Of a stretch of DNA of 64,000 nt, positions 11,328-62,670 are shown in pieces. The notes under the pieces are model-generated. The model had not been told where the DNA came from. It did no database searches and saw only the letters and a list, made by a program, of their open reading frames with translations. The stretch's first letter is position 1. Each line of letters begins with the position of its first letter. The DNA lies in contig JACPRW010000001.1 of NCBI GenBank assembly GCA_016193585.1, positions 59,171-123,170 of the forward strand. Direction: 5' to 3'. Source of the DNA: Candidatus Aenigmatarchaeota archaeon. Its GTDB lineage: Archaea; Aenigmatarchaeota; Aenigmatarchaeia; GW2011-AR5. The translations under genes and the position numbers were made by a program.

Positions 11328-11424
11328 TATAGTTCTACAAGGAAAGATTTTAGATATTATTTCCTTGTGAACTATAGGTGAACCCAGTCATAACATATCC
11401 TGATTATTTACTGGGTTCCCTATA
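11328..11424. repeat. two adjacent palindromic hairpin elements (F6-variant TATAGTTCTACAAGGAAA...TTTCCTTGTGAACTATA, and F1-variant GGTGAACCCAGT-loop-ACTGGGTTCCC)
   Basis: These are inverted repeats with 20-24 nt loops. The loop is the reverse complement of the F1 loop at 14200-14225. Confidence 0.7.
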
Positions 11425-11959: not shown

Positions 11960-12663
11960 ATGCCCTACCGTAATAACAATTACCGGGACAACAGGCTCGT
12001 TGACAGGATTGATGCTGCAGTGCTGCGCCTTCATGAAAACATTGCCCGGTACTGGCAGAATACAACCTACCGGAGCAAGGACGTTCTCGCAAAGGGCCTG
12101 AATGCGACGTCTCTCGCATGCTGCACGGTCAATATCGGCTCCATACCGCTCACGAAGAATTACGAGGATCTCATTTTTTCAATACCGCTGGGAGCAGCCC
12201 AGGCGCGCAGGCTTGTCAGCCGCGGTCGGCAGAAAACGACGTTAGAGGCTGATGCCGAAAGAATCAGAAGAGACGTATATGATGAGCTGTACGATACAAA
12301 AATACCAAGGCTTGTCGTATTGACAGGCGGGCTTTACGCATTGGGGGGGGGGGGGGGGGGGGAATTTCATATGTCGTCGACGGTATGATCAACGGCAAGC
12401 CGGATGCCATTGCAATCGGGGCAGGGGATTTCATACCCCTTGGCATCGGGATTCTCTCTGCGATGTCTGCAGGGTATATAGATCGCGTGGATATCGGCGA
12501 TCCGCCAAAACGTCCGGAAAGAAAAAGCATCAGGGAGTGGCTACAAGAGTATGCTAGGAATGCGCTTCCTTCTCTTCCCTGTTTACCAAATCCCTTTCCC
12601 AAGCCGTCTTTCGGGACGAACGCGTCTTTGCTGACCGAGGAACTGTATCGAATGTATAGATAA
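11960..12663 (+). pseudogene. hypothetical gene split by a G20 homopolymer (ORFs 11960-12388 and 12385-12663 join with +1 G)
   Basis: Both halves look protein-like (…RLVVLTGGLYALGGGGGG / …VDGMINGKPDAIAIGAGDFIPLGIG…). The frame change coincides exactly with the poly-G run. Confidence 0.4.
12343..12362. repeat. G20 homopolymer tract
   Basis: 20 consecutive G read directly from the sequence. Confidence 0.95.
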
Positions 12664-12826
12664 CTGCGTAGTTTATGTGACGTATTATTAGCAGTTATCT
12701 ATATGCAAACTGCGTTGTATGGTGAATTGCACTGGTTATGTCCTGATATTATTTGCAATTCACCTATAGAAAATTGCGCGTTAATACGACATAACAGAAA
12801 TTTTTATTTACTGGTTTCACTATAAA
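12655..12826. repeat. cluster of four TATAG-terminated hairpin elements (F2, F3-fragment, F5, F4-partial, F1-half)
   Basis: tatagataactgcgtagtttatgtgacgtattattagcagttatctata, then tgcaaactgcgttgta, then ggtgaattgca...tgcaattcacc, then aaaattgcgcgttaatacgacataa. The element supplies the stop codon (TAA 12661-12663) of the upstream ORF. Confidence 0.8.
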
Positions 12827-12849: not shown

Positions 12850-14121
12850 ATGAAGGCGGTAGCTGTCGTCGGCATGCAGTTCGGTGACGAGGCGAAGGGC
12901 AAGATTGTCGACGTGCTCTCGAACAGTAGGGACGTTGTTGCAGGCATTCGTTTCGCCGGCGGCAACAACGCAGGACACACGGTCGTGTTCGGCGGCAAGG
13001 AATACAAGCTGCATCACATTCCTTCTTCCATCTTCCACGGCAAGCTTTCAGTCATCGGGCATGGCACCGTGGTCAATCCTGGCGTACTGCTCGATGAAAT
13101 CAGGCAGCTCGGTGCGCTTGCTGAAAACCTGCGCATCAGCCCCAATGTCCATGTCATCATGCCGTACCATATACATGAGGATGTGCTGCTCGAAGCAAAA
13201 AAAAGCAGCAAGGTCGGTACGACCGGTAGGGGCATCGGCCCGTGCTATGCCGACAAGGCGAACAGAATCGGCATCAGGATAAGGGAGCTGTTCGACGGGG
13301 AAAGCCTGAACAGGAAGCTTGAATTCCTGATTCCGCTCAAAAACAGCACGCTGCAGCACGCATACGGCTGGGACGGTGCGCTGGACAAGGACGCAATTGC
13401 GATGGAGTATGCAGCATACGGAAAATTCCTGAAAACGTATGCTTTTGATGGCACAGTACCCGAAGGAACCGTCCTGCTTGAAGGGGCACAGGGCGCACTG
13501 CTGGACATTGACATGGGAACGTACCCGTTCGTGACGTCGTCGCACCCGACTATCGGCGGAGCGCTCGCCGGTTCAGGCATGCCGAAAGCAGACGCGGTCG
13601 TGGGCGTCATGAAAGCATACACAACAAGGGTGGGCGAGGGGCCGTTCCCGACCGAGCTGACAAACGAGGTTGGCGCGAAGCTGCGGCAGGAAGGCAGGGA
13701 ATTCGGCACGACTACCGGCAGGCCGCGGCGAGTAGGATGGCTTGACATACCCATGCTGAAGTACGCGGCCCGCGTCAACGGCGTTACAGCACTTGCACTC
13801 ACCAAGCTCGATGTTCTGGCAGGCATGCCTGAAATCAAAATCGCCGTTGTCTACGATCGTGCCGGCATACAAATTAATGCACTATCCCATGCGACTGACG
13901 TGGCAGATGCAACGCCGGTTTATGAAATAGTGAAGGGATGGAAAGCGCTGTCTCAGGAACAGTGGAATGCACTTGCCCAGGAAGGCTTTGCAGCGCTCCC
14001 TGAAGAAGCGCAGGAATATGTCAGGCTTATCGAGCGCAGCCTTGCCGTGCCTGTTGCGATTGTTTCAGTTGGTGCAGACAGGAATGCAACGATATTACGG
14101 AAGCCTCTTCACGAATTATAG
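12850..14121 (+). CDS. purA: Adenylosuccinate synthetase
   Basis: MKAVAVVGMQFGDEAKGKIVD...GTTGRGIGP...GTTTGRPRR. The stop TAG (14119-14121) lies inside the TATAG terminus of the downstream element. Confidence 0.9.
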   Translation: MKAVAVVGMQFGDEAKGKIVDVLSNSRDVVAGIRFAGGNNAGHTVVFGGKEYKLHHIPSSIFHGKLSVIGHGTVVNPGVLLDEIRQLGALAENLRISPNVHVIMPYHIHEDVLLEAKKSSKVGTTGRGIGPCYADKANRIGIRIRELFDGESLNRKLEFLIPLKNSTLQHAYGWDGALDKDAIAMEYAAYGKFLKTYAFDGTVPEGTVLLEGAQGALLDIDMGTYPFVTSSHPTIGGALAGSGMPKADAVVGVMKAYTTRVGEGPFPTELTNEVGAKLRQEGREFGTTTGRPRRVGWLDIPMLKYAARVNGVTALALTKLDVLAGMPEIKIAVVYDRAGIQINALSHATDVADATPVYEIVKGWKALSQEQWNALAQEGFAALPEEAQEYVRLIERSLAVPVAIVSVGADRNATILRKPLHEL

Positions 14122-14360
14122 ATAATTGCGCAGCTTATGTCGTATTAACGCGCAATTTTCTATAGGTGAATTGCAAATAATATCAGGACATATAGTGAAC
14201 CAAGTAAATAATCAGGTATTATATCTTGGTTCACTTACACCCAAAAAGCAAAGCTTTTTGGTGCACCGGAAAACTTTGTTTTCCGCGTGTAGCGGACAAC
14301 AAAAGTATTATGTCGGTATTCTTTTGTTGGTCCACTATAACCAGTGCAATTCACCATATA
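14117..14360. repeat. hairpin-element cluster: F4, then F5 split by a nested 150-bp element
   Basis: F5 appears intact at 41585-41632 and 55822-55870. Here it is interrupted after ...caggaca by an insert with TIRs TATAGTGAACCAAG / CTTGGTCCACTATA. Confidence 0.8.
14191..14340. mobile_element. about 150-bp MITE-like element nested in an F5 hairpin (TIR TATAGTGRACCAA, TA/ATA target duplication, three internal hairpins)
   Basis: A second copy lies at 57646-57793 in opposite orientation (roughly 95% identity by eye). The F5 halves on either side reconstitute the intact element. Confidence 0.7.
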
Positions 14361-14397
14361 ATCGTACCTTTAAAAACCTGACCCATCTATAACGTAT

Positions 14398-16510: not shown

Positions 16511-16618
16511 GGATTCTTTGATACATCCCTAGTAGACATAACATCTCGCAGCAGCACACAAGACGAACAAAAGTAGGCATAAGCGCTAGTTAGGCGAAAT
16601 TTATGGAGGAAGTAGAAA

Positions 16619-17353
16619 ATGGATATAAATCCTGAGAAATTCCATAGATCTATAAGTAAAGAGTTGAAGGTAATTCAGGATCGAGTTAGGAATCTTATGG
16701 GTAGTGCACATTGGGGAGAAGAAGGGAGGTATAAGGAAGCCGTATTAAGGAGCATTATAAGAAGATTCTTGCCCAAAAATGTAAGTATAGGCACAGGATT
16801 TATTTTAAAAAAAGAGGGCGACGAGATTAAAATATCAAATCAAATAGATATTATCATCTATGACAATACGTATCCAGTGCTGTTTGCAGAAGGCGATTTT
16901 TTAATAACTACACCAGCAAATGTAAAAGGAATAATAGAGGTCAAGACCAAGTTAAATTCTTCAGATGTAATGGATGTGGTTTCTAAAGCTACAAATAATG
17001 GGAAAGTAGTTGATAATGAGATATTTAGTGGAGTATTTGTTTATAACGAAGGAAATATAGTTAACAACAGCAACATAAGTGATAACCTTAAAAGTGCTTT
17101 AAAAGAGAGTAAAGGCGTTGTGAATCATATTTGTTTAGGGGAAGACATTTTCATTAAATTTTGGCCAAGGAATCCACAAAGTAACTTCCCGAATAAATAC
17201 AGTATCTACAGAATAAAAGACCTCTCCTTTTCTTATTTTATTTCTAACCTTGCTGAACAAACATCTGAGAGTAAGCTAAAAGAAAGATGGTGGTTTTTAT
17301 ATCCCATCGAAAAAGGCAAGGAGGAATATAAAATTGAGGATATTGATGTTTAA
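16619..17353 (+). CDS. PD-(D/E)xK nuclease-fold protein, possible defense/abortive-infection component
   Basis: 244 aa with SNQIDIIIYD ... GIIEVKTKL (D...ExK). The N-terminal region is helical. The gene is AT-rich with a GGAGG SD. Confidence 0.5.
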   Translation: MDINPEKFHRSISKELKVIQDRVRNLMGSAHWGEEGRYKEAVLRSIIRRFLPKNVSIGTGFILKKEGDEIKISNQIDIIIYDNTYPVLFAEGDFLITTPANVKGIIEVKTKLNSSDVMDVVSKATNNGKVVDNEIFSGVFVYNEGNIVNNSNISDNLKSALKESKGVVNHICLGEDIFIKFWPRNPQSNFPNKYSIYRIKDLSFSYFISNLAEQTSESKLKERWWFLYPIEKGKEEYKIEDIDV

Positions 17354-17559
17354 ACTTCGCCTAACATAGCATAAAAGGTTCGTGCCTCACAGCGCTCACC
17401 CAAATTTTTGCTTCGCAAAAACTTCTTTTATGCTGGAAACGTTCAACGAAATTCCGAACATTATTTCAGGCCGCCGACACGATAGCTCTTCGCTTCCAAG
17501 CCTCTGGAACGACAAGGCGAATTTATAAGGATTATCGGAAGAATTATTTATGTGATGTT

Positions 17560-18333
17560 GTGACAAGGAAGAAGGTATCCAAGAAAGATGTACATAAATT
17601 AAAAAAAGAGCCAAAATTTTCTCAAGAGATAAAAACTTCAGTAGTAATGCCTTTCAAATGTAAATTTTGTGGCAATCTTTTTGATATTGAGCACAGACTT
17701 CCAGAAAACCATACTTGTGAAGGTCTTTCTCAATGGAAAGAAAAACATTTGAAAGAATTTCATGAAGGTAAAAGTTCTATCGCATATGAAAACACGCTGG
17801 AACCAAAACATGAAGATTCAGGCTATAAAGATTCTATGAGAAACGCCCTTCGATGTGACTCAAAACAATTTTTCAAAGGAATACCAGAAAAATTCAATAA
17901 ACAGGCAATAAGATTGAATATTCATCGACTAATTCAAAAAAATATGAATGATATCGGCATATGGCTCATAGGCTTATTTATTATCTTTACAGCTTTCAAT
18001 CAGATACTAAAATACTCTATACTTGAAAGTATTTCATGGATTTTTGTTTACGTTGCAGAAATTATTTTTATATATAAGTTGATTAAGCGTGTTGACAAAA
18101 TAGAAGTAAATTCAGATTTGAGTATTTGGGGTTTAAAAATATTATCATTCATCTTTATCCTTATTGGAGTGTATATATTCTTATTCGGGTCTTTGGCATT
18201 AGCCACCGTCTATAGCCTTTATGTTCTCGGGCTTCTTGGTATAATAGCGCTAGGATTCTTTTCAATTGGCGCTTTTCTGATTTTCAAATTCAAACGAAGA
18301 AGTGGGAGCATTGTATGGGTCGGAAGAGCGTAG
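17560..18333 (+). CDS. Zn-finger (AN1-like CxxC...HxxxxxHxC) protein with two C-terminal TM helices
   Basis: [20 protein letters not shown] motif and a K-rich N-terminus, followed by two long hydrophobic helices. The start is uncertain (alternative Met at 17647). Confidence 0.45.
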
Positions 18334-18426
18334 AAGAAATTATTGTAATGAGAAAGTCGTTATAAAACTTATTTTGGCTAGCCTTAAATACTTATATAAA
18401 ATCATATATACATAAACTTATATAGA

Positions 18427-18699
18427 GTGGTAACCATGCAAAAAAGAGAAATTATACACTATCCTAACCTTAGCACAATGCTTGAAGTAGAGAAGGTCCT
18501 GAAAGAAGCAGACGGACCTATATCCAAGGAAGAACTGAAAAGGAGGCTTCCGACAAAGATTATGCACCAGACACTTAACCTTATTTTGGCATACATGGAA
18601 AACAGGGGGCTGATTTTATCAGGCCCGAAAGGCATACTCTGGACATACAATCCCAGCCCGAAACTGCAGAAAGCCATAGAAAAAGGCATTGAGATATGA
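18427..18699 (+). CDS. small winged-helix-like protein (putative antitoxin/regulator)
   Basis: 90 aa. Its stop overlaps the next gene's start (ATGA). Confidence 0.4.
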   Translation: MVTMQKREIIHYPNLSTMLEVEKVLKEADGPISKEELKRRLPTKIMHQTLNLILAYMENRGLILSGPKGILWTYNPSPKLQKAIEKGIEI

Positions 18700-19067
18700 G
18701 TAGAAATATCAACGTCATACTTAGCGAAGAAGCTACCAAGCAATATGAAGAACTGAACAGGATTGTTGGTGATGAAATAAAGAAAGGCATAACGAATTCT
18801 ATTCATCAGCAACTACTCAAATCCATAAAACAGAAATCTGAGCTTCTGAAAATCAATCCTCAGGCTGGAATACACATATCGAAAAAGCTTATACCGAAAA
18901 TCTATATAGACAAATACGATGTCGATAATCTGTGGAAAATAGATTTGTCTGGTTACTGGAGAATGACGTATACGTTGCGGACGACAGAAATAGAAATAAC
19001 GAACTTCGTTCTAGATATAGTAGATCACGTAACGTACGACAAAATACTTGGATACAAGAAAAAATAA
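18696..19067 (+). CDS. RelE/ParE-like toxin
   Basis: N-terminal ...SEEATKQYEEL...IKKGI...LKINP and C-terminal GYWRMTYTL...ITNFVLDIVDHVTY, matching the RelE/ParE fold pattern. Confidence 0.5.
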   Translation: MSRNINVILSEEATKQYEELNRIVGDEIKKGITNSIHQQLLKSIKQKSELLKINPQAGIHISKKLIPKIYIDKYDVDNLWKIDLSGYWRMTYTLRTTEIEITNFVLDIVDHVTYDKILGYKKK

Positions 19068-19466
19068 ACATCGCCTTGTAGCCAAAACCATTCTGAACCT
19101 GAAGAGCCACTTTCAGGCCGTCGGCGGTCCTGTTTTCAGTATTGTGCTGAATGCCTTGCATTCGCACATCTTCGGAGAAATATAATTTCTCCGAGATTCA
19201 GAAAATCTTCGATTTTCGAGAAATTTGCACGAACCTATGGTTCGGTGCAGTATTGTCGGAACTCTTCGCTTTCCTGCGGAAAGCTCGCTTTTCTTTCAGA
19301 AAAGTCGCTGAACAGCGATTAGAAGATCCGCTTCTGCGAAGCTCCATCCAAATGGCGATTATATAAAAAGAAATAATCGCCACTTCTTCTAATCGCATAC
19401 GTTATGCTCAATTCGTGGGCTCGCCGGTTAAAAAGTTTATTAAGCCAACTTAACTATTGATTAATT

Positions 19467-22159
19467 ATGGTAGACATTTTATATATTTTTTCAGGTTCAC
19501 CGTTGCTCTACATTCTCATATTAACATTAATTGCATTAGGTACATTCCTAATCTGGAAGTCATTCAAAACAAAATATAAATTCATTTTTTTAGGGGTTTT
19601 AGGCTTGGGAATAATCACTGTTCTCCTATTTTCTTTTATTAATACTCAACAAGGATCACCTGAACCGGATGCATCTGGAAAATCAGGCTACACATTGACT
19701 CTAAAAGAAGTGTGGGGTTCGAAGAGATGGATAAAGACCTTCGAAAGGCCCGGTAGTGATTATCCATTTGCAGTTCTGCAAACCTCTGACGGCGGGTATG
19801 TGGTTAGCGGGAGAACAAATAACGGCACGAAAGATTGCTATGGCGGGACCCCTATGATTTTAACATTCCTTTTCAAGACAGACGCGGATGGAAACAAAGT
19901 CTGGGAAAAGTTTCATTACGCTGGCAGAATAGTTTCAATCCAGCAGACTTCTGACGGAGGGCTGGTGGCTACAGGATCAATAGCTGCCACTGACACAGGA
20001 ATTGATGTTTACCTTGTAAAAACAGACGCGAAAGGCAGTATTACTTGGGAGAAGAGCTATGGTGAGAGTGATCCCGAGGGAGGATTTTCCGTCCAGCAGA
20101 CTTCTGACGGAGGGTATATCATTGCGGGGGGGGGACAGGTAGACGCTTGGGAAATCAAGGGATTTACTTGCTTAAAGTTGACAGCAACGGAAACAAATTG
20201 TGGAGCAGGATATTCGCCAAAGATTTAAAGACGGATGAGGAACCGCAACTGGTCCAGCAGGCTGCTGATGGAGGCTATATAGTTGTTGGGTGGAGGAAAT
20301 CGCAAGGAATGCCCAGCATAAAAGAAGACCCTAATGACCCATACATTGATGACGACGTCTATTTGCTAAGGACTGATTCATTAGGGAATAAGATTTGGGA
20401 GAAGACGATTGACGCATTTGGGAAGCGTGCAGACGAGAGGCTTGTGCATGATGCCTTGCAAACACCTGACGGAGGTTATGTAATTGTTGGAGGCTCAGCA
20501 CCCATTGTAAGATCAAATGGCGCACTACAAAGTTCGAGCCCCTATGTCTATTTGCTCAAGATTGATTCTGACGGGAACAAAACATGGACGAAGGATTATG
20601 GTATGGGAATTGGTCATTTAGTTCAGCTAACGTCCGACGGCGGTTACATAATCACTGGAGAGGTAATAGACAACGTGGGTCCAAATTACCTTGTGAAGAT
20701 AGGAACGGACAGTGACGGGAATAAGTTGTGGGAGAAACCCATTGAAATACTTAATACATATCAGGGCAAGGATTACCCAAATGTGGTTAAGCCAACCTTT
20801 GACAGCGGCTACATAGTCCTTGGAACCAGAGAATATGGCGACCTTATGGGATATGCCGGCATGCTGGAATCTGATACCCTGCTCATGAAGATAGAAGAAA
20901 CAGACACACTAAGATTGCCGGATTATGAGCGGGTACCGCCGCGTGAAACGAAGTTGCCCACCCAAGTTGAGCTACTGACTCCGACGGGAAAAGGATGGAT
21001 GAAGACAGTTGGAGGGAGTTTAGGCTCAAAGGCGCGAGCCGTGCAGAAGACATCTGACGGAGGCTATATAGTTGCAGGTTGGACTCATCGTAGTGTGACA
21101 GTACCTTATGGATTGAACGACACGACAGTCCTGACACAAAGGGAAGCATATATTGTTAAGACAGATGGAAATGGAAATAAAGTTTGGGAGAAGAGCTTTG
21201 GAGGAGATGGGTTTGAAGACGGGTTTTCAGTACAGCAAACCCCTGACAGCGGGTATATGGTTCTTGGAATCAAGGAGGCATATGCCTATCTGATAAAAAC
21301 AGATGCTTATGGAAACACGCAGTGGAATAAGACACTTGGTGAAAATTATGGTGATGTGGGTTTTTCACTCCTGCAGGCTTCTGACAGTGGATACATAATT
21401 GTTGGGATTACACAAGGCCATGGTGCGACCCCGTGTAACGCAAAAGAACCTGAGCGAGGCGCATCAGCTGATGTCTATATCATAAAGACTGATGCTGACG
21501 GAAACAAATTGTGGGAAAAAGTAATTGGCGGAACGCATATGGATATAGGATATTTTGTGCAGAAGACTTCTGACGGCAATTATATAATAACTGGAATGAC
21601 AGCTTCATTTAGTGAAAAAGGAGTCGAGGATGTTTACCTGCTTAAAATAGACAGCCATGGCAACAAATTGTGGGAAAAGGCAATTGGGGGGGACAAAAGC
21701 GAGATGGGCTATTCAGTACAACAAACTACTGACGGCGGTTATGTAATTGTTGGGCAAACAGTTTGGTCAATCAAAGGAGCAGATATGGGTGAAGGGGGTT
21801 ATGCTAGCCAGTCAGATATCTATTTAATAAAAACAGATACATACGGGAACAAAATCTGGGAAAAGACGTTTGGGGGGAGTTCGATGGATAGGGGATTTTC
21901 AGTGCAGCAGACTTCCGACGGCGGGTACATCATTACCGGAGACACAGACGGGCATCTTTACCTCTTCAAAACAGATGCAGACGGGAATAAAGTCTGGGAA
22001 AAGGCATTCAAAAGAGACGAGACCAAGCCATTCACGGGACGGTCTGTCAAGCAGACTACTGACGGCGGGTACATGGTTGTTGCAAATACGTTTTACACGT
22101 CAACACCTGCCTATCAGCCTATAATACTCATAAAGACAGACGCAAACGGGGATGTGTGA
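19467..22159 (+). pseudogene. secreted multi-repeat beta-propeller-like surface protein, frameshifted at a G9 tract
   Basis: It has an N-terminal TM/signal segment and 15 or more roughly 55-aa repeats (QQTSDGGYII.G....D.YL.KTD..GNK.WEK..GG). ORF 19467-20228 (frame 0) and ORF 20147-22159 (frame 2) share the same repeat and join if the G9 run at 20126-20134 gains one G. Confidence 0.6.
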
Positions 22160-23087
22160 AATTGTGAGAAAAACAATTTTTATAATCCCTTTGCTGATTT
22201 TGATTGTTTTTGTCAGTGGCTGCGTCGGGCAGGGACCTGGCATGAATCCGACTGTAATAACCGGCAAGACAACCATTGAGAAAAGCGGTTTGTACGTCTT
22301 GAACAGCGACATCTCCTGCACCGCCGAAGGTGAAATGGACGTATGCATCGATATACAGAGGCATGACGCTGTGCTTGATTGCCAGGGTCACAGCATAACT
22401 CTGGCGAATCAACAGGCCCGCCGCGGCCCTGCCAGTACCGGGATATACATAGCTGGCAGCGGCGTGGAGGACGTGACTGCCAGGAATACCGTCAGGAATT
22501 GCAGGATTGAGAACTTTGCATTCGGCATATTCCTCAAGGCCAGTTCCAACAACTTCATCAACAACACCATCAGCAACAATGGCATCGGAATCTACTACGA
22601 CGACTTTTCCTCGTACAACATTTTCATAAACAACACGGTGAGTAATAACAACAATAGAGGCATCTACCTGTTCATGCGCTCGTCCAACAACAATTTTACA
22701 GGCAACATTGTAAGAAACAATAGCATATACGGCATCATTATCACCTGCGCGGCACACCACAACACCTTTTCCAACAACGTGGTTGAAGGCAACGGATACG
22801 GCAGCACGAGTGACGAGAACGGCGGAATCTACATCCTCAACTCATACGCCAACGTCTTTTCAGGCAACGGGATATGCAACAACTCGAAAACCATTAAATG
22901 CAAGTTCGATGCCACAATGGAAGGCATAAGTGATATCTGCAGGCCGCAAGTCCTTCCAGACACCATTCCAATTGACAGGGATGCACAGGAAGCCGGAAAC
23001 CTCATTGACGGCGGGGGAAACACCTGTGGTCCGAGCTCCATGAGCTGCGACGGCACCACCATAAGCTGCATCAGGGGTTGCCCATGA
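22152..23087 (+). CDS. right-handed parallel beta-helix (NosD/pectin-lyase-like) lipoprotein
   Basis: Lipobox FVSGC, then N/G-rich approximately 22-aa repeats (NNTISNNGIGIYY, NNTVSNNNNRGIYL, ...). Confidence 0.65.
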   Translation: MCEIVRKTIFIIPLLILIVFVSGCVGQGPGMNPTVITGKTTIEKSGLYVLNSDISCTAEGEMDVCIDIQRHDAVLDCQGHSITLANQQARRGPASTGIYIAGSGVEDVTARNTVRNCRIENFAFGIFLKASSNNFINNTISNNGIGIYYDDFSSYNIFINNTVSNNNNRGIYLFMRSSNNNFTGNIVRNNSIYGIIITCAAHHNTFSNNVVEGNGYGSTSDENGGIYILNSYANVFSGNGICNNSKTIKCKFDATMEGISDICRPQVLPDTIPIDRDAQEAGNLIDGGGNTCGPSSMSCDGTTISCIRGCP

Positions 23088-24604
23088 AAAATCTGGCTAT
23101 TTTCTTTTTATTGTTTATTTCAATAGCACTTATCAGCGGCTGTGTCCAACAACCGTCTAAACTAAAGGATTCAGAAACACCGGGCTATGCATCATCAGGC
23201 ACAACCGGCAAATATCCGGAACAAAATCCAGATTGTGCAAACTCAGGTGTGAAAACCTGGGCAAAAGTGTTTGGCGGGCCTGGATTTGATTATGCAACTT
23301 CACTCCAGCAAACTCCTGATGGAGGGTATGTGGTTACTGGACTCCTTAATTCCGGACCGACGGACTCGACCGGCGAAAAGCAGTATGATGTCCTTTTGTT
23401 CAAGGTTGATATGGACGGGAACAAAGTATGGGAGAAGTCGTACGGGGGGAATGAGAACGATTTCGCATTCTCACTGCAACAGACTGCTGACGGTGGATAC
23501 ATTATCGGAGGAGAAACGCGTTCCTTTGAAGATAAAGGTGCCAATGCCTATCTTATAAAAACCGATGCCGATGGCAATCTGCAATGGAACAGGACATTCG
23601 ATATGTGCGGAGGAAACGAGTCTGACAGGGTACTCTCAGTGAGGCAGACTTCTGATGGTGGGTACATAAGTGCAGGCGTTACATTTTCCTGCAGCCAAAA
23701 GCTCTGGGGGGAACAGCTCCCATGGGACGACTCCTTCCTTCTTAAAACAGATGCAAACGGTAATATGTTGTGGGAGCGCATTTTTGGATGGAAGGAGAAC
23801 ATAGACCAGGCGCTTTCGGTCCAGCAGACCTCTGACGGAGGATTCGTGGCCATCGGATACATACACTATTATGACCCAAACGGACCTATCTATATCTATG
23901 GACGAGACATTTACTTGGTAAAAACTGATAAAGATGGAAACATACTGTGGAACAAAACATTCGGAATCGGTAACAAGACATCTCTTGGAAACGGATTGAA
24001 TAATGCGGAAGTGTTACAGCAGACTTCCGATGGAGGATATGTGGTTGCCGGACAAGGAGCCGACAGACGACTATATCTGCTGAAAGCTGATGCGAACGGC
24101 AATAAAGTCTGGGAAAAATCAATTGGAGATCTGAATTTGCATAGCAGGGGATACTCTGTAAAGGAAACAACTGACGGCGGCTACTTCATTATAGGGGCAC
24201 GATGCATTCCAGACTATGAACCGAGAACCATAATTGTCGACAGTAATGTTATTCTTGAGCATCCATGTGAGTTCTACTTCCTGAAAACTGATGCGAACGG
24301 AAACATAGTATCGGAGATGTCCGGCGGGCGCACTTTCAATGGCGTGCTATGGCCAGGCCAGCAGACTCCTGACGGGGGATACATAATTGTTGAAACTGTA
24401 TTCCCAAGAGTGAGCGCGACCCAGTATGCAAAGACGACTGACATCCTCATGATGAAGCTGAATGAGAATGGAGTTGTATGTAACCTTACTTATGGCCAAC
24501 CCTGCACACTGGTGCCTGAGCCAGAGTGGATAAACAACCCCGCATGCAAAAATCTTATTTATGATGAAGAGTACATTCACAATCCCTATCTCCCAGAGCG
24601 ATAA
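23078..24604 (+). CDS. beta-propeller repeat lipoprotein (same repeat family as 19467-22159)
   Basis: Lipobox LISGC, then repeated QQTSDGGY...YLLK.DANGNKVWEK units. Confidence 0.65.
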   Translation: MPMKNLAIFFLLFISIALISGCVQQPSKLKDSETPGYASSGTTGKYPEQNPDCANSGVKTWAKVFGGPGFDYATSLQQTPDGGYVVTGLLNSGPTDSTGEKQYDVLLFKVDMDGNKVWEKSYGGNENDFAFSLQQTADGGYIIGGETRSFEDKGANAYLIKTDADGNLQWNRTFDMCGGNESDRVLSVRQTSDGGYISAGVTFSCSQKLWGEQLPWDDSFLLKTDANGNMLWERIFGWKENIDQALSVQQTSDGGFVAIGYIHYYDPNGPIYIYGRDIYLVKTDKDGNILWNKTFGIGNKTSLGNGLNNAEVLQQTSDGGYVVAGQGADRRLYLLKADANGNKVWEKSIGDLNLHSRGYSVKETTDGGYFIIGARCIPDYEPRTIIVDSNVILEHPCEFYFLKTDANGNIVSEMSGGRTFNGVLWPGQQTPDGGYIIVETVFPRVSATQYAKTTDILMMKLNENGVVCNLTYGQPCTLVPEPEWINNPACKNLIYDEEYIHNPYLPER

Positions 24605-34346: not shown

Positions 34347-34445
34347 TATAGATAACTGCGTAGTTTATGTGACGTATTATTAGCAGTTATCTATATGCAA
34401 ACTGCGTTGTAGTATGTAACCTAAGTAACGCAGTTTACTATATAG
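34347..34445. repeat. hairpin elements F2 + F3 (tatagataactgcg...gcagttatctata; tgcaaactgcgttgta...taacgcagtttacta)
   Basis: F2 is identical to the element at 12657-12705. It lies at the junction of the conserved ftsY-pfdA block. Confidence 0.8.
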
Positions 34446-39195: not shown

Positions 39196-39666
39196 TTATT
39201 CAGACTCGACCTTCTGCTGCTCGATTTTCGGCGCTTCCTCGGGCTTCTTGGTGCCTTCGGCAGCCTTTTCTTCCTCCTGCTTCTTCACCGCCTTCGGCCC
39301 CAGCCGCTCCATGAGCTTTTCTTTCATGCCCTTCTTCTCGGTCTTTGGTGTTGCCTTGAATTCCTCGTAGGAGAAGCCGAGCAGCTCGGCCCTGACTGTT
39401 TCGCCGTCCCTGACTGCCCTTACCCTGACCTTGCGCGGCGGGCGCTTGATGCCCCGTGTCCATACCGCTTCGTTGAGGTTCCTGCCGAGCCTCACGTCGC
39501 CTGACTTCATGTGGCGTGCCAGGTAGCTCCTGATGAGCTGCATCGCGTACGGCGTCCGCTTGAAGTACATCTTGCGGAACGCCTTCCTGAGCGGTATCGT
39601 GTACACGCGCTCATGCTGCGCCTGCGCAGGAGCTTCGCGCTTCGGTTCTGTTTTTTCGTCCGCCAC
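39196..39666 (-). CDS. rpl31e: 50S ribosomal protein L31e (with long K/E-rich C-terminal extension)
   Basis: ERVYTIPLRKA...YLARHMK...VRLGRNLNEAVWTRGIKRPPRKVRVRAVR is the L31e core. About 60 extra C-terminal residues are KE-rich. Confidence 0.85.
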   Translation of the reverse strand: MADEKTEPKREAPAQAQHERVYTIPLRKAFRKMYFKRTPYAMQLIRSYLARHMKSGDVRLGRNLNEAVWTRGIKRPPRKVRVRAVRDGETVRAELLGFSYEEFKATPKTEKKGMKEKLMERLGPKAVKKQEEEKAAEGTKKPEEAPKIEQQKVESE

Positions 39667-39678
39667 GTTTCATCGACC

Positions 39679-39778
39679 TATATACTAAACTGCGAAACTT
39701 ATATGACGCAGATTCGCAGTTTGTATACAGATAACTGCTCATAATATGTCATGCAAATTATGCAGTTATCTATATCTT
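39679..39778. repeat. hairpin elements F3-variant + F2-variant (tatactaaactgcgaa...ttcgcagtttgtata ; cagataactgctcataatatgtcatgcaaattatgcagttatctata)
   Basis: It is identical to 62388-62478. It overlaps the 3' end and stop of rpl39e. Confidence 0.8.
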
Positions 39779-39934
39779 GTTCCGTCCCCTTCTCCAGTGC
39801 TTCGCGGTGACGCGCACGCGCCTTGTCCGCGCCCGCTTGAGCGAGTGCTTCTTGATGTCCGCCCAGCGCGGAGCGCTTCGCCTGCGAGCGGCGATGAGCT
39901 TGAGCTTCTTGCCGTATGCTTTCCGTGATGCCAT
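39770..39934 (-). CDS. rpl39e: 50S ribosomal protein L39e
   Basis: The 54-aa MASRKAYGKKLKLIAARRRSAPRWADIKKHSLKRARTRRVRVTAKHWRRGRNKI matches L39e. The last codons and the stop lie inside the hairpin element. Confidence 0.8.
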   Translation of the reverse strand: MASRKAYGKKLKLIAARRRSAPRWADIKKHSLKRARTRRVRVTAKHWRRGRNKI

Positions 39935-40115
39935 ATCAGAACCCATCATGTTACGCTTTAATTATCGGTTCCGATACCTCCGGTATTATCAGAACCCATC
40001 CATTTTATTCATAAACACTTTGTGTTTATCAGCTTCTCCAAAGCTGGAATGTAGCCGGTTCCCGAACCTCCGCTACTCAGATTTCCCGCTTGGTGCCGTA
40101 TTACTTTTTGCTAAG

Positions 40116-40424
40116 CTATTTCCTCCGTATCCGGATGTCGCGCTTGCTACTCAGCTTCTTAAGGATGGCTATGAGCTGCTCCTCGCTGATTCTGCCCCTC
40201 AGCTGCCCTGCATGGTGCAGCTGCGCAAGGTACGCCTCGAGTTGCATCGCCATGTCAGGCTTCACCACCTTGAGGTTCGCCAGTCGCTCGCGCGCTCTCG
40301 GCTCGAGTATCTGCATCGAAATCGTCTTGAGCGTCGCTTCGATCTGCTGTTGCTGCATCTGTTGCTGCATCTGTTGCTGCAGGAGCCTCTTCTTGATTTC
40401 TTCTTCCTCCATATAGGAACCCAT
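40116..40424 (-). CDS. PDCD5/TFAR19-like dsDNA-binding protein (archaeal DNA-binding protein family)
   Basis: It has a QQQM low-complexity stretch, then EATLKTISMQILEPRARERLANLKVVKPDMAMQLEAYL, and sits in the conserved slot between rps19e and rpl39e. Confidence 0.7.
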   Translation of the reverse strand: MGSYMEEEEIKKRLLQQQMQQQMQQQQIEATLKTISMQILEPRARERLANLKVVKPDMAMQLEAYLAQLHHAGQLRGRISEEQLIAILKKLSSKRDIRIRRK

Positions 40425-40430
40425 CCATTT

Positions 40431-40527
40431 TATAGTAAACTGCGTTACTTAGGTTACATACTACAACGCAGTTTGCATATAAATAACTGCTAATAATACG
40501 TCACATAAACTACGCAGTTATTCATAT
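40431..40527. repeat. hairpin elements F3 + F2 (reverse orientation)
   Basis: tatagtaaactgcgttacttaggttacatactacaacgcagtttgcatata + aataactgctaataatacgtcacataaactacgcagttattcata. Confidence 0.8.
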
Positions 40528-40711
40528 TTTCACATCTTTCAGATGTGCCAGCCTCTCCGAGACTGCACTATAGTCAGTTCCTATTACCTCCGACAGGAAC
40601 CACACGCTTCACTATGCTGGACACACCGACGGTGCGTCAGCTCGTTTTCAGTCCTGAGACCCCCTGTTACAGGAAGGCGGCGAAACCTTGTAATCAATCC
40701 CAGGAATGATT

Positions 40712-41125
40712 TCACGCGACGCTTTTGGCGACAGCATTGAGGAACCGCTTGCCATCGGCAGTGAGTATCCTGCCCTTCTTCGGCTTGTCAACTTTCTGGA
40801 CAAATCCCGCTTTCTCAAGGTCCTGGAGGATGACGCGGACAATCTTGCCGCCGCCCCTGGCGAAATGCGCCGGCTTGTGGCCGCGCCTGTGGAGACCGCC
40901 GTAATAGGTTCGCAGCCGCTCGACGCCAACAGGGCCGTTCAGGTGGATGCGGCGCATGATGCTTGCTGCACGGACGTACCACCAGTCGGGATTTTCAGGG
41001 ACCCGGTCCCGCGAGACGCCTGTCTTCACGTAGAGGGACCACGACGGCGCGCTCATTTTTTTCTTGAGTTCATCCGAAGCCTTCGCTACAAGGAGCTGCG
41101 GATTTTTGTCGTAGATTGAGACCAT
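40712..41125 (-). CDS. rps19e: 30S ribosomal protein S19e
   Basis: 137 aa with ...WYVRAASIMRRIHLNGPVGVERLRTYYGG...KPAHFARGGGKIVR. Confidence 0.9.
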   Translation of the reverse strand: MVSIYDKNPQLLVAKASDELKKKMSAPSWSLYVKTGVSRDRVPENPDWWYVRAASIMRRIHLNGPVGVERLRTYYGGLHRRGHKPAHFARGGGKIVRVILQDLEKAGFVQKVDKPKKGRILTADGKRFLNAVAKSVA

Positions 41126-41537: not shown

Positions 41538-41634
41538 TATAGATAATTGCGCAGCTTATGTCGTATTAACGCGCAATTTTCTATAGGTGAATTGCAAATA
41601 ATATCAGGACATAACCAGTGCAATTCACCATATA
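41538..41634. repeat. hairpin elements F4 + F5 (intact F5)
   Basis: tatagataattgcgcagcttatgtcgtattaacgcgcaattttctata + ggtgaattgcaaataatatcaggacataaccagtgcaattcaccata. Confidence 0.8.
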
Positions 41635-41705
41635 ACCATCAAAAGAAATAACCGGCATGCAGGGCGCAGCGTTGTGTCTCCCGAAAGAGACACCGGACAT
41701 GCTTT

Positions 41706-41960
41706 CTACAGCGTATCGTATATCCGGGGTCTTTTATCAATTTTTGTAACAAGAACGATTTTTTGTTTCTCCGTAACCTTGTACAAAGCTCTGTAATCTC
41801 CAATGCGGCATCGGAAGACCGATTCGCCGTCTTTATCCCTCGTTATAAACTTTGCGTCAGAAGGAATTGGCACCTCTGCCAGCTTTTTGAGCCGCTTCTC
41901 AATTCGCTCGCGAAGATGCATGTCTAACTTGTCTAAGAATTCTGTAGCCCGCTGGGACAA
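41706..41960 (-). CDS. relE: RelE/ParE family toxin
   Basis: 84 aa with ...FRCRIGDYRALYKVTEKQKIVLVTKIDKRPRIY. Confidence 0.7.
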   Translation of the reverse strand: MSQRATEFLDKLDMHLRERIEKRLKKLAEVPIPSDAKFITRDKDGESVFRCRIGDYRALYKVTEKQKIVLVTKIDKRPRIYDTL

Positions 41961-50070: not shown

Positions 50071-50436
50071 CTATTTTACAAACTCCACATTCTTCATGCC
50101 TGCAAAAGCATCGTCACCGGTAAGGAATTTTAAGTTATTTCCCAATGCGAACGCATACCCTATGCAGTCTGCATACGAGAGGCTTTTCTTCTTGTTTTTG
50201 AGGCGAAATGCTGCTGCGGTAAGCAGAATTTCATCAGAAACGTCGACCTCTGCATCCCTGAATCTCTGGAAAGCTCCTTTTGCAGATGCTCCGTCCAACT
50301 CGGAGAGAATTATATAAACGAGCTCCACGAGATTAAATTTTGTAGTGGCGATATCCTCCCCGATAAATTTGAGATAGTTCGGGTTGTTTTTCGTGATTTC
50401 GATAAGCGCATACGTATCAAAGAAGTAGTTTACCAT
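50071..50436 (-). CDS. vapC: PIN-domain toxin VapC
   Basis: MVNYFFDTYALIEI... and conserved acidic positions (D..E..D). Confidence 0.7.
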   Translation of the reverse strand: MVNYFFDTYALIEITKNNPNYLKFIGEDIATTKFNLVELVYIILSELDGASAKGAFQRFRDAEVDVSDEILLTAAAFRLKNKKKSLSYADCIGYAFALGNNLKFLTGDDAFAGMKNVEFVK

Positions 50437-50690: not shown

Positions 50691-50785
50691 AGCCACCGAA
50701 GGGAATTGAACCCTTAACCTGCAGTTCAATCGGAAGGTTTCTCCTCTTACAAAACTGCTGCTCTGCCAGGTTGAGCTACGGTGGC
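50691..50785 (-). tRNA. tRNA-Thr(UGU) with 21-nt intron in the anticodon loop
   Basis: Hand-folded as GCCACCG-TA-GCTC-AACCTGGCA-GAGC-A-GCAGT-TTTGTAA-[agaggagaaaccttccgattg]-ACTGC-AGGTT-AAGGG-TTCAATT-CCCTT-CGGTGGC-T. Every stem pairs and the anticodon is TGT. Confidence 0.8.
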
Positions 50786-50828: not shown

Positions 50829-51173
50829 CTATTCTAGACCAAGACTAACAATTATGGCTTCGTCAACTTCTCGCATCTTTCTATACGACAATTTTCCATA
50901 TTTTTTTATTATTCTTGATTTGTCTATTGTCCTTATCTGGTTAAGCAGTATTGTAGACTTTTCCTTAAGCGGCGAATCTATAGTCTCGGTTTCAACATTT
51001 ATTGGAAACTGTTTGGAATATGTTTTCGTCGTTATAGGCGCTATGATGGTAGTTGGACTGTATTCGTTTCCTATGTCATTCTGAATAATTAATGCAGGTC
51101 TTGTTTTTCCTTGCTCAGAACCAGTTACAGGATCTAAATTGACAAGAACTATATCTCCACGCTTAATTTGCAT
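50829..51173 (-). CDS. mazF: MazF/PemK family endoribonuclease toxin
   Basis: MQIKRGDIVLVNLDPVTGSEQGKTRPALIIQND is the PemK/MazF N-terminal signature. Confidence 0.75.
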   Translation of the reverse strand: MQIKRGDIVLVNLDPVTGSEQGKTRPALIIQNDIGNEYSPTTIIAPITTKTYSKQFPINVETETIDSPLKEKSTILLNQIRTIDKSRIIKKYGKLSYRKMREVDEAIIVSLGLE

Positions 51174-54441: not shown

Positions 54442-54553
54442 GACAACCGCCTATACCATAACACTGTAGTATAAAAAAGTTCCGGTATGTGGAACTGTAG
54501 TGCTCTTTCGTTTTCCCCAAGCTTTTAGTACGCGCACGACAAAACCTTAGGAA

Positions 54554-54830
54554 GGGGTCATGGTATAACCAGGTAGTACGGCAGGCTCCAGACGGCTCCT
54601 TTTCTTCGAAAGAAAAGTAGCCGGCAGTCAAAAGAACGAACTGGAGCTTTGAGCTGCGTAGGTAGCAATGATAAGATTCCGCAGGAGGGAATCAGGAAGA
54701 ACTTGATCTTCAAAGAGCAGAGCTCTTTGAGAGCTCAAAGAAGCGAAGCTTCTTTGCAGCAACTGAAGGGAATCTGGGTTCCCTGCGGTTAAGAAACCTG
54801 CTAGTCGGGGTTCAAATCCTCGTGGCCCCA
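54554..54830 (+). tRNA. tRNA-Trp(CCA) with an approximately 204-nt intron (54592-54795) carrying C/D-box-like motifs
   Basis: Hand-folded: acceptor GGGGTCA/TGGCCCC, D-stem GTAT/GTAC, anticodon stem GCAGG ...(intron)... CCTGC, loop CTCCAG|A, T-arm CGGGG-TTCAAAT-CCTCG, discriminator A. The intron contains ATGATAA (C-box-like), CTGA (D box) and TGGAGC complementary to the anticodon region. Confidence 0.65.
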
Positions 54831-55743: not shown

Positions 55744-55910
55744 TATAGTAAACTGCGTTACTTAGGTTACATGATATAGATAATTGCGCAGCTTATGTCG
55801 TATTAACGCGCAATTTTCTATAGGTGAATTGCAAATAATATCAGGACATAACCAGTGCAATTCACCATACAACGCAGTTTGCAGTCACATAAACTACGCA
55901 GTTATCTATA
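55744..55910. repeat. hairpin-element cluster F3(half)-F4-F5-F3(half)-F2(half)
   Basis: tatagtaaactgcgttacttaggttacatgata | tagataattgcgcagcttatgtcgtattaacgcgcaattttctata | ggtgaattgca...tgcaattcacca | acaacgcagtttgcag | cacataaactacgcagttatctata. Confidence 0.8.
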
Positions 55911-55954
55911 TGTAGTGAACATTCTGTAGGAGACAGTGCCACACCCTGAGCAAT

Positions 55955-56300
55955 GGGCACGTGAACATAGCTTTCATAGCAGGTTCACGTAATAACCAAA
56001 CTTTTCACCTGAACCTGCTATACGGTATGTTCTGCATAAAATGTTCACTAACCAACAGAACATACTATCAGTATGCACATGAACAGCTCGGAGTTTGCGC
56101 CATGAGGCATGAACAGTGCCCGCCGATAATAAGCGCCGGGTTCGTGTATCAGGTACCTGTACGTGACAGAAAAGACGTACCTCTTCTCGAACTGTGGATA
56201 TATGATAGTAAAGAACATTGATTTTGGAACATTTTATGATGTTCTTTCCCTATAGCAGATTGCAGCTAAAAGTTCCATTATTATTACAATCTGCTATAAG
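55955..56300. repeat. second family of palindromic elements (GTGAACA/TGTTCAC-type and TATAGCAGATTG...CAATCTGCTATA)
   Basis: cgtgaacatagctttcatagcaggttcacg; gtatgttctgcataaaatgttcactaaccaacagaacatac; aagaacattgattttggaacattttatgatgttctt; tatagcagattgcagctaaaagttccattattattacaatctgctata. The last two recur at 62578-62670. Confidence 0.7.
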
Positions 56301-57599: not shown

Positions 57600-57645
57600 T
57601 AGTAGAATAATGCGTTCAAAGGCTTTATAATATAATATAGCGGAC

Positions 57646-57793
57646 CAACAAAAGAATACCGGCATATTACTTTTGTTGTCCGCTACACGCGGAAAACAAA
57701 GTTTTCCGGTGCACCAAAAAGCTTTGCTTTTTGGGTGTGTATCATATCTTGGTTCACGTACGATTATTTACTTGGTTCACTATAAATGCCAAC
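57646..57793. mobile_element. second copy of the ~150-bp MITE-like element (reverse orientation relative to 14191-14340)
   Basis: tatagcggaccaacaaaag...ccggaaaacaaagttttccgg...caccaaaaagctttgctttttgggtg...cttggttcac...ttggttcactata. It has three internal perfect hairpins and TATAG termini. Confidence 0.7.
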
Positions 57794-57934
57794 CTCTCCC
57801 GGAAGCTCGACATAACAGTTGGCGGTGCAGTTTTGATACGTGATCAGTAATTTATAGCTCTACAAGGAAACAAACAGGATATATTCCCCTGTGAGCATGT
57901 CCCTCATGGCAGCGGCATTCATGCGGTGTAAAGA

Positions 57935-58029
57935 TATAGTTAACCAAGTAAAGAATCCGGATATTATAACTTGGTTCACTATATGTGACCAACTTGTGTA
58001 ATACCTGAATATTAAGTTGGTCAGCTATA
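57935..58029. repeat. two adjacent small hairpin elements (tatagttaaccaag...cttggttcactata ; tatatgtgaccaactt...aagttggtcagctata)
   Basis: Perfect 9-10 bp inverted repeats with 20-nt loops and TATA termini. Confidence 0.75.
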
Positions 58030-61579: not shown

Positions 61580-61775
61580 GTAATACCCCTCGCAACGCAT
61601 CCGCTTATGCGAGTGCGTGCTCAAAGAACCTTTTGTTCTTTGGCAGCTCAGAGAGCTCTGCTCTCTGCAGCTATCCCCTATTACATCTAGTGTAACACGT
61701 CGGGAAAACTATAAAAGTGAGGAATGGGAACAAGCTTATAAATCTGCTGGACGTAGTACTATTCCGTACCCACTG

Positions 61776-62336: not shown

Positions 62337-62670
62337 TATATAGTGAAACAAGAAAAGATTCCGGATATTATTTTCTGGTTTCACATATACTAAACTGCGA
62401 AACTTATATGACGCAGATTCGCAGTTTGTATACAGATAACTGCTCATAATATGTCATGCAAATTATGCAGTTATCTATACATGGTAAAGCAAAGCATTAC
62501 CTGTACAGATGAAACGTTGTTTCACCATGTATAGCAAACAAGGAAGTTATCCTGTTTATTTCCTTGTATTGCTATAATAGTAAAGGACATTGATTCTGGA
62601 ACATTTTACAATGTTCTTTCCCTATAGCAGATTGCAGCTAAAAGTTCCATTATTATTACAATCTGCTATA
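62337..62670. repeat. large composite cluster of about 7 different hairpin elements (F1, F3v, F2v, TATACATGGT-type, F6, AAGGACAT-type, TATAGCAGATTG-type)
   Basis: 62388-62478 is identical to 39688-39778. 62520-62580 is the reverse complement of 1483-1530. 62578-62670 is near-identical to 56205-56297. Confidence 0.8.

Follow-up and report, generated by a model that had tools for sequence, protein, structure and literature searches.

A TA-flanked hairpin element nested in the loop of another in the purA–purP spacer of an Aenigmarchaeota archaeon

Introduction

The Correia repeats of Neisseria (Correia/CREE/NEMIS) are the closest analogue of the elements described here, being non-coding and flanked by duplicated TA dinucleotides (PMC2649163, PMC2229807, PMC9778887). 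They fall into size classes of 104–108 and 153–157 bp, have a single 26-bp type of terminal inverted repeat (TIR) with tips of the form TATAGTGGA...TCCACTATA (TATAGTGGATTAAC...), carry one CCGG-type and one TCAGG-type end, fold strongly and often lie beside genes and inside operons. The enzyme that mobilises them remains to be identified (PMC2649163, PMC2229807, PMC9778887, PMC5039591), and internal inversions are among the features reported for CREE (PMC9778887). Correia repeats have been found not to form REPINs.

Sulfolobus SM1, Stowaway and Nezha are MITEs derived from IS630/Tc1-mariner elements. This group is also accepted as the origin of bacterial MITEs flanked by TA, RUP of S. pneumoniae among them (PMC2229807), and the IS630 family occurs in archaea, where IS200/IS605 is the most widespread IS family (PMC13343696). 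REP, BIME and REPIN sequences are palindromes of about 20–50 nt with a conserved stem-foot motif and covarying stems, found as intergenic singlets, dimers and clusters at high copy number; REPs have an asymmetric GTAG head, make no target duplication and depend on a single-copy, REP-flanked RAYT gene. In Candidatus Thiomargarita nelsonii a Correia-like long-hairpin MITE with TATAG at both ends and without a parent IS is mostly intergenic, occurs on more than 100 contigs and has one copy inside a group I intron (PMC4853749). For DPANN genomes, MITE densities as high as 146 per Mb have been reported (PMC11602168).

We analysed a 64-kb stretch of DNA (the window, whose positions are used throughout) from a short-read metagenome MAG of an Aenigmarchaeota (DPANN) archaeon, in which one hairpin-ended element lies inside another between two purine genes. 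The locus is set out below together with its empty counterparts, the family of hairpin modules to which it belongs and its likeness to the systems named above.

Results and discussion

An element inserted in the loop of another

A stack of two elements occupies the spacer between the purA stop codon and the promoter-like TTTAAAAA, which lies 23–30 nt upstream of the purP ATG. The outer element, F5, had been noted in a preliminary description of this DNA as a hairpin; the hairpin is real, but it is the second (hairpin b) of a 91-bp two-hairpin element that is present in four copies in the window and spans 14119–14356 when filled. All parts of the stack are given on the forward strand. F5 is bounded on the left by a TA at 14117–14118, within a TTA codon of purA, and on the right by a TA at 14357–14358, after which comes TAA, presumably the original purA stop. 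Its hairpin a (14119–14164; TAGATAATTGCGC...GCGCAATTTTCTATA) is followed by the left arm and left loop part of hairpin b (14165–14190; GGTGAATTGCAAATAATATCAGGACA), identical to 41586–41611 and 55823–55848, and, beyond the insert, by the right loop part and right arm of hairpin b (14340–14356; ACCAGTGCAATTCACCA), identical to 41614–41630. The insert stands between a left (14191–14192) and a right (14338–14339) copy of a target TA that is single at the empty sites. It consists of a left-end hairpin module (14193–14236; TAGTGAACCAAG-loop-CTTGGTTCACT) whose outer arm is the left TIR, a core of two short, GC-richer hairpins (14238–14289; CACCCAAAAAGC-AAA-GCTTTTTGGTG and CACCGGAAAAC-TTT-GTTTTCCGCGTG), and a right-end hairpin module (14290–14337; TAGCGGACAACAAAAG-loop-CTTTTGTTGGTCCACTA) whose outer arm is the right TIR. 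Read through, 14117–14361 is TATAG-ATAATTGCGC..GCGCAATTTTC-TATAG-GTGAATTGCAAATAATATCAGGACA/TA/TAGTGAACCAAG ... CTTTTGTTGGTCCACTA/TA/ACCAGTGCAATTCACCA/TA/TAA, and these 245 nt fold into one hairpin enclosed by another (dG = -55.6 kcal/mol, z = -10.4).

Deleting 14193–14339 from the filled site leaves a 98-nt string identical at 98/98 positions to the intact, TA-flanked F5 of an empty site at 41538–41635 (forward strand), and positions 14117–14192 joined to 14340–14361 match the copy at 55775–55872 at 97/98 by exact string comparison. The earlier view that F5 is split by an insert of about 150 bp and then resumes exactly was thus correct, the flanks being the two halves of one F5 unit, and the 98/98 reconstitution excludes chance as the origin of the nesting. 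The net gain at F5b is 147 nt, the sum of a 145-bp element (14193–14337) and a further TA. In its filled state the site is ...ATCAGGACA/TA/TAGTGAACCAAG...TTGGTCCACTA/TA/ACCAGTGCAATTCACC, the empty sites read ...ATCAGGACA/TA/ACCAGTGC... with a single TA, and the copies at 41538 and 55775 run uninterrupted as ...ATCAGGACA/TA/ACCAGTGCAATTCACCA.... The insert ends, TATAGTGAACCAA and TATAGTGGACCAA, form the imperfect TIRs that had been proposed, identical at 12/13 positions over 13 nt counting the TA (TATAGTGRACCAA), with the consensus TAGTGRACCAA, and these repeats reach the very tips of the element. F5 itself has tips that agree at 8/11 (TAGATAATTGC vs TGGTGAATTGC), and its flanking TAs are at 14117/14357, 41538/41632 and 55775/55869. 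Where a duplication of TA or ATA had been suggested, the 2-bp TA stands and the third base does not, because the base after the TA differs among the three contexts in which F5 is TA-flanked (CGAAT/TA..TA/TAATCG, GGATT/TA..TA/TAACCA and CATGA/TA..TA/CAACGC). A 3-bp ATA duplication was rejected, since it does not hold at the F5 sites and would leave the ends without symmetry.

Support from independent assemblies

Three observations would suit a contig mis-threaded through short repeats into a nesting that exists in no cell: the source of the contig is a short-read metagenome, every unit interrupts the Logan unitigs, and the MAG and the unitigs disagree over one neighbouring cluster. Unitigs from four runs (SRR12113432, SRR12113419, SRR12113390 and SRR12113401) nevertheless lead from the right end of the insert, across the right copy of the target TA, through the right half of F5b into the unique DNA upstream of purP, and the unitigs of purA end in F5a. 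A chimeric join would, moreover, not fall exactly at a TA and restore 98/98 identity, and we regard such an artefact as extremely unlikely. The right junction and the split of F5b are real, as independent unitigs of the four runs carry them; the left junction is known from the MAG alone. A unitig present in 12 samples likewise places the right end of the second insert copy (see below) beside the geranylgeranyl-reductase gene.

The neighbouring cluster in question lies upstream of purA and is structurally polymorphic between samples. Unitigs of ten samples read ...TAACCTAAGTAACGCAGTTTACTATATAGCGAATGA/CAGAAATTT... where ...CGTTAATACGACATAA/CAGAAATTT... stands in the window. Positions 1–35 of the unitigs, made up of the right arm of a G unit and TAGCGAATGA, thus differ from window 12759–12794, while all that follows, beginning with CAGAAATTT, is the same in both.

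The second copy of the insert

The 145-bp element is small and present in two copies at unrelated sites in the window. Its second copy had been reported in inverted orientation at 57646–57793; copy and orientation hold, and the coordinates, about 10 nt off, are corrected to 57636–57784 (reverse strand), 37 nt upstream of the geranylgeranyl-reductase start codon. Including the TA on each side, it measures 149 nt, the same as the first copy, with which it shares 127/149 positions in an ungapped alignment and 97% over 103 nt, the core being identical. Its flanks (TATAATATAA/TA...TA/AATGCC) are unrelated to F5. At 57739–57761 a segment of about 23 nt, comprising the right arm of the left hairpin and part of its loop, is inverted relative to the first copy, which turns the left hairpin into a direct repeat of CTTGGTTCAC. 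The left-end module of the insert is homologous to free-standing units at 57935–57983 and 62339–62388.

A second filled and empty pair

The F5 copy at 55775–55872 (forward strand) is intact and has a host of its own: it lies in the loop of a G-type hairpin unit spanning 55744–55910. The empty G unit, GGTTACATAC/TA/CAACGCAG, occurs at 40431–40481 (forward strand), our reference for this event, and inverted at 34392–34445; the filled unit reads GGTTACATGA/TA/TAGATAA...TTCACCA/TA/CAACGCAG, with the same TA arithmetic as the purA–purP stack. The fourth F5 copy (12714–12811, reverse strand) is inverted, with a 5'-truncated hairpin a, and occupies, within a G unit, the TA that the copy at 55775 also uses; the right junction of the G(F5) composite recurs at 12704–12720, so that either the composite was copied whole or the same TA was struck twice. 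Insertion into a TA inside a hairpin loop has therefore occurred repeatedly, and the two independent filled and empty pairs bear out the earlier proposal of mobility with TA duplication, for which 'Tc1/IS630-like' is apt as a description of behaviour (a strict TA target and a 2-bp duplication).

Some features would also suit an origin without transposition, in which TATA-bounded palindromes recombined, underwent gene conversion or switched templates during replication, with TA/TATA as microhomology. Units are shuffled, truncated and fused (for example a hybrid at 12795–12825 and a 22-nt deletion at 55884), copy 2 carries an inverted segment, and the purA-upstream cluster varies in structure between samples. 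Against this, two independent events show an identical and exact gain of element plus TA with perfectly kept flanks, the inserted segments bring their own TIRs, and the same segments are found at unrelated sites of unique sequence that are also TA-flanked, and on this evidence we consider an origin without transposition very unlikely.

A dense family of hairpin modules

Both elements belong to a larger family of hairpin modules of 45–52 nt, bounded by TATAG...CTATA or close variants, of which about 40 lie between the genes of the window. They stand singly, as dimers or in clusters (1484–1579, 11328–11424, 12655–12825, 14117–14358, 34347–34445, 39680–39774, 40431–40528, 41538–41634, 55744–56298, 57636–58029 and 62339–62670) and add up to about 2 kb, or about 3% of the window. 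Under a strict definition (TATA..TATA spanning 40–59 nt with arms complementary at 10/12 positions or more) there are 15 units in the 64 kb, as against none in 652 kb of 43 unrelated prokaryotic loci, mostly from CPR bacteria, which are the loci of the PurP relatives described below. The strict count corresponds to about 230 units per Mb and the loose count to about 600 per Mb, both above the published DPANN maximum given earlier. A scan of the window against Rfam returned tRNA only, and the units are thus not a known RNA family.

The units have in common their TATAG tip and a loop that is rich in AT and has C(C/A)GG at its centre (e.g. AAAGAATCCGGATATTAT). Over the 11 nt that follow the tip, different units agree with a mean score of 4.99/11 and the two arms of one unit with 8.95/11; there are 19 distinct stems among 20 units, whose arms share TATAG and an A-rich tract only. 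Several unit families have identical or near-identical dispersed copies, which argue for recent spread. Every mobile composite has a hairpin module at either end, and the two end modules are often related to each other (AATTGC in F5, G.G.ACCAA in the insert, AACTGCG in the G dimer).

Searches for a mobilising enzyme and for relatives

No transposase of any family was identified by Pfam among the roughly 80 ORFs of the window, a set from which an 88-aa ORF running across the insert had been left out (GC at third codon positions 0.37). With respect to the window, at least, the elements depend on functions supplied in trans. A 238-aa frame at 39777–40493 (forward strand), which had looked like an IS-like gene between unit dimers, was rejected as spurious; the real genes there, on the opposite (minus) strand, are a 59-aa L39e-like ORF and a dsDNA-binding protein gene. 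A full-length IS with the ends of these elements was found neither in the window nor in the collections searched.

A 22-mer from the insert core had no match in genome contigs or metagenome contigs, four unit patterns had none in viral contigs, and a blastn search of the insert against plasmids was likewise without a match. A 19-mer from the right TIR gave five matches in metagenome contigs, of which four were discarded as chance (three in one coding sequence, one in AT-rich DNA). The fifth, on the JGI contig Ga0315295_10121317 (2328–2356), is TATAGCGGACCAACAAAAGATTCCGGACA, in which the 19-nt match to the insert tip is followed by the loop motif of the unit at 62339, with no matching second arm; it is a possible, if doubtful, solo arm belonging to a related family of some other organism.

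The nearest homologue of PurA is 52% identical and the PurP relatives are at most 61% identical, mostly from CPR bacteria, and the loci of these PurP relatives contained no orthologous empty site. Judged by these proteins, the host lineage appears to have no close relative in the collections searched.

Comparison with described elements

The insert resembles the Correia repeats at its tips. The right tip of the insert, TATAGTGGACCAACAAAA, agrees with the Correia tip at 16/18 positions (15/18 for copy 2; chance expectation about 0.01 per window), and 13 of the first 18 nt of the left end match (5 mismatches, counted by eye). The insert ends carry ACCG(G) and TCAGG at a depth similar to that of the two Correia end types, its length of 149 bp including the TAs compares with the two Correia size classes, and in both systems the elements fold strongly and often lie beside genes and inside operons. 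The cores of the two look unrelated; that of Correia elements is conserved and includes an IHF site in the long form. The inversion within copy 2 has its counterpart among the changes described for CREE (PMC9778887). The differences are that the host here is a DPANN archaeon, that each end is a complete hairpin module, and that at least 19 different stems take the place of the one Correia TIR type. In a search with an HMM of 16 other arms, Correia repeats ranked 273–440 of about 5000 scored sequences, not above decoys, and the resemblance is therefore one of 'works like' and not of 'is a member of', common descent being unsupported. The TATAG MITE of Thiomargarita, whose host is a gammaproteobacterium, is likened to the present modules by its description and not by sequence (PMC4853749).

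The present elements are like the IS630/Tc1-mariner MITEs such as RUP in duplicating a TA, in their short TIRs and small size, in their apparent mobilisation in trans and in lying nested within other repeats (PMC2229807). Those MITEs share their TIRs with an identified IS or transposase, whereas here the TIR interiors vary from unit to unit and a parent IS was not found. Features general to MITEs are present, namely TIRs, a TA duplication in two filled and empty pairs, and a small, multicopy, non-coding nature, while the single transposase-binding sequence conserved in all TIRs of IS630-type elements is absent, as the variety of stems makes plain. The modules resemble REP, BIME and REPIN sequences in being palindromes with a conserved foot and covarying stems, in their intergenic arrangement as singlets, dimers and clusters, and in copy number. 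They differ in being symmetric (TATAG/CTATA) with a TA duplication in place of the one-sided GTAG head without one, and the window encodes neither a RAYT gene nor a Y1 transposase. IS200/IS605-derived (PATE-like) elements have asymmetric ends with subterminal hairpins, lack TIRs and insert 3' of a fixed target of 4–5 nt. The modules are like them in having hairpins at both ends, but TIRs that extend to the tips and targets with only the TA in common speak against such an assignment.

How the elements may move

We interpret the locus, with a probability of roughly 0.55, as non-autonomous foldback MITEs that have become stacked in the purA–purP spacer and are moved in trans by a TA-cutting enzyme, most likely one of IS630/Tc1-mariner type. 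F5 sits, as a TA-flanked 91-bp element, exactly at the purA stop codon, and the 145-bp element later entered the single TA in the loop of F5b and duplicated it. The enzyme, encoded elsewhere in the genome, would make a 2-nt staggered cut at TA and join element ends terminating in ...CTA-3', which is the chemistry of IS630/Tc1-mariner DDE transposases and is seen as behaviour for Correia and other TA-flanked MITEs. Two inverted hairpin modules, in any pairing, would serve as ends and carry the DNA between them; dimers, the 145-bp composite and the occurrence of the G(F5) composite at two loci would all be accounted for in this way. Richness in TA would be the reason why stop codons, promoter-proximal DNA and the AT-rich loops of hairpins are struck.

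The stems fit this interpretation least comfortably. Their variety, combined with matching arms, looks like the outcome of selection or correction for pairing and not of binding by one protein to one sequence; one DDE transposase that recognises a specific sequence could hardly be expected to bind every one of them, and on physical grounds single units of 48 bp would be too short to synapse as stiff duplex DNA. Insertion 3' of a TA, with no true duplication, would fit the TA arithmetic as well. Hence hairpin-guided, single-strand transposition deserves consideration, in which a Y1 HUH enzyme (TnpA/RAYT-like) would read the folded hairpin and its TAG foot and insert 3' of TA, the units being REP/REPIN- or IS200/IS605-like substrates whose own terminal TA mimics a duplication. 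It would account for conserved TATAG/CTATA tips and AT-rich loops beside free and covarying stems, for mobile composites that all end in hairpins and for the hairpin loops that host both nested insertions, and the prevalence of IS200/IS605 in archaea (PMC13343696) lends it weight. The ends, however, are true TIRs, symmetric to the tip, where IS200/IS605 ends are asymmetric and the REP head is one-sided, and the junctions, when solved symmetrically, give a TA duplication of 2 bp. The absence of a Y1 enzyme from the 64 kb also counts against it. RAYTs, furthermore, have been described in bacteria. Taken together, these points make a hairpin-guided route rather unlikely, though it is to be borne in mind.

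A smaller chance still attaches to an enzyme that reads shape, recognising the foot of the hairpin and the TAG/CTA tip, and so moves TATAG modules while still duplicating TA. The stems would then covary because one arm is corrected against the other in a hairpin intermediate. Such an enzyme would represent a mode of transposition between DDE (TIR and duplication) and HUH (hairpin), and its class could include the long-missing enzyme that moves Correia elements and the TATAG MITEs of Thiomargarita.

The purA–purP locus and the surrounding genes

Returning to the reading of the locus as stacked MITEs, the effect of F5 on purA can be followed in the sequence. The gene is now terminated by the first three bases of F5 (TAG, 14119–14121), and the Pfam match of PurA, a protein of 423 residues, extends to residue 415. 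Without F5 and one TA the sequence would read GAA TTA TAA, with an in-frame stop, which suggests that the F5 insertion left the PurA protein unchanged.

The window is archaeal housekeeping DNA. Its purine genes are purE, purC, purB, purN, purD, purF, purA, two copies of purP, purL, purQ and purM, and its other genes include those for FtsY, S19e, L31e, exosome subunits, CysRS, PCNA and CTP synthase. A minus-strand run at 39196–41125 comprises S19e, a dsDNA-binding (PDCD5-like) protein, the 59-aa ORF mentioned above, which looks like ribosomal protein L39e although it has no Pfam match, and L31e. Unit dimers lie at two of the three junctions in this run (S19e/dsDNA-binding gene and L39e-like ORF/L31e), and from this position they would be transcribed within the mRNA.

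Several further features of the window were recorded in passing. Between a HIT gene and the reductase gene, in the non-coding DNA at 55920–56250, GAACA(T/G) or its complement occurs at least nine times in about 300 nt, among hairpin units, and these copies could be a protein-binding array. At 54500–54800 and 61622–61670, both free of ORFs, there are many small hairpins of the form CAAAGAGC-AGA-GCTCTTTG, similar to those of the insert core; they have no Rfam match and may be an unrecognised structured RNA or terminator-like hairpins. A low-GC island at 16600–19500 (0.38–0.40 against about 0.53), encoding a DUF6602 protein and an AN1 zinc-finger protein, is possibly acquired DNA. Large genes at 19467–24604 contain periodic repeats of 140–200 nt with weak Pfam matches to PQQ/beta-propeller and beta-helix domains, and their products are likely surface proteins. 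Three toxin-type genes (ParE, PIN and MazF), together with a 95-nt tRNA-Tyr, probably with an intron, that lies between the PIN and MazF genes, account for 41706–41960, 50071–50436, 50691–50785 and 50829–51173.

Conclusions

What the locus records is ordinary MITE behaviour by an undescribed, very dense and modular family. The two filled and empty pairs within 64 kb provide internally controlled evidence that hairpin repeats of a DPANN archaeon are, or recently were, mobile, and the units, at about 40 per 64 kb in a lineage without a close sequenced relative, constitute an undescribed MITE superfamily. The combination of TA duplication with many covarying stems bears on the old question of what moves Correia-type elements, for which a small genome is now available in which to seek the gene responsible; there is a small chance that the locus points to structure-guided transposition related to Correia mobilisation. 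In the organism itself, the position of the elements at stop codons, at promoters and at the junctions of a ribosomal-protein operon suggests that they probably shape the transcripts of a reduced genome.
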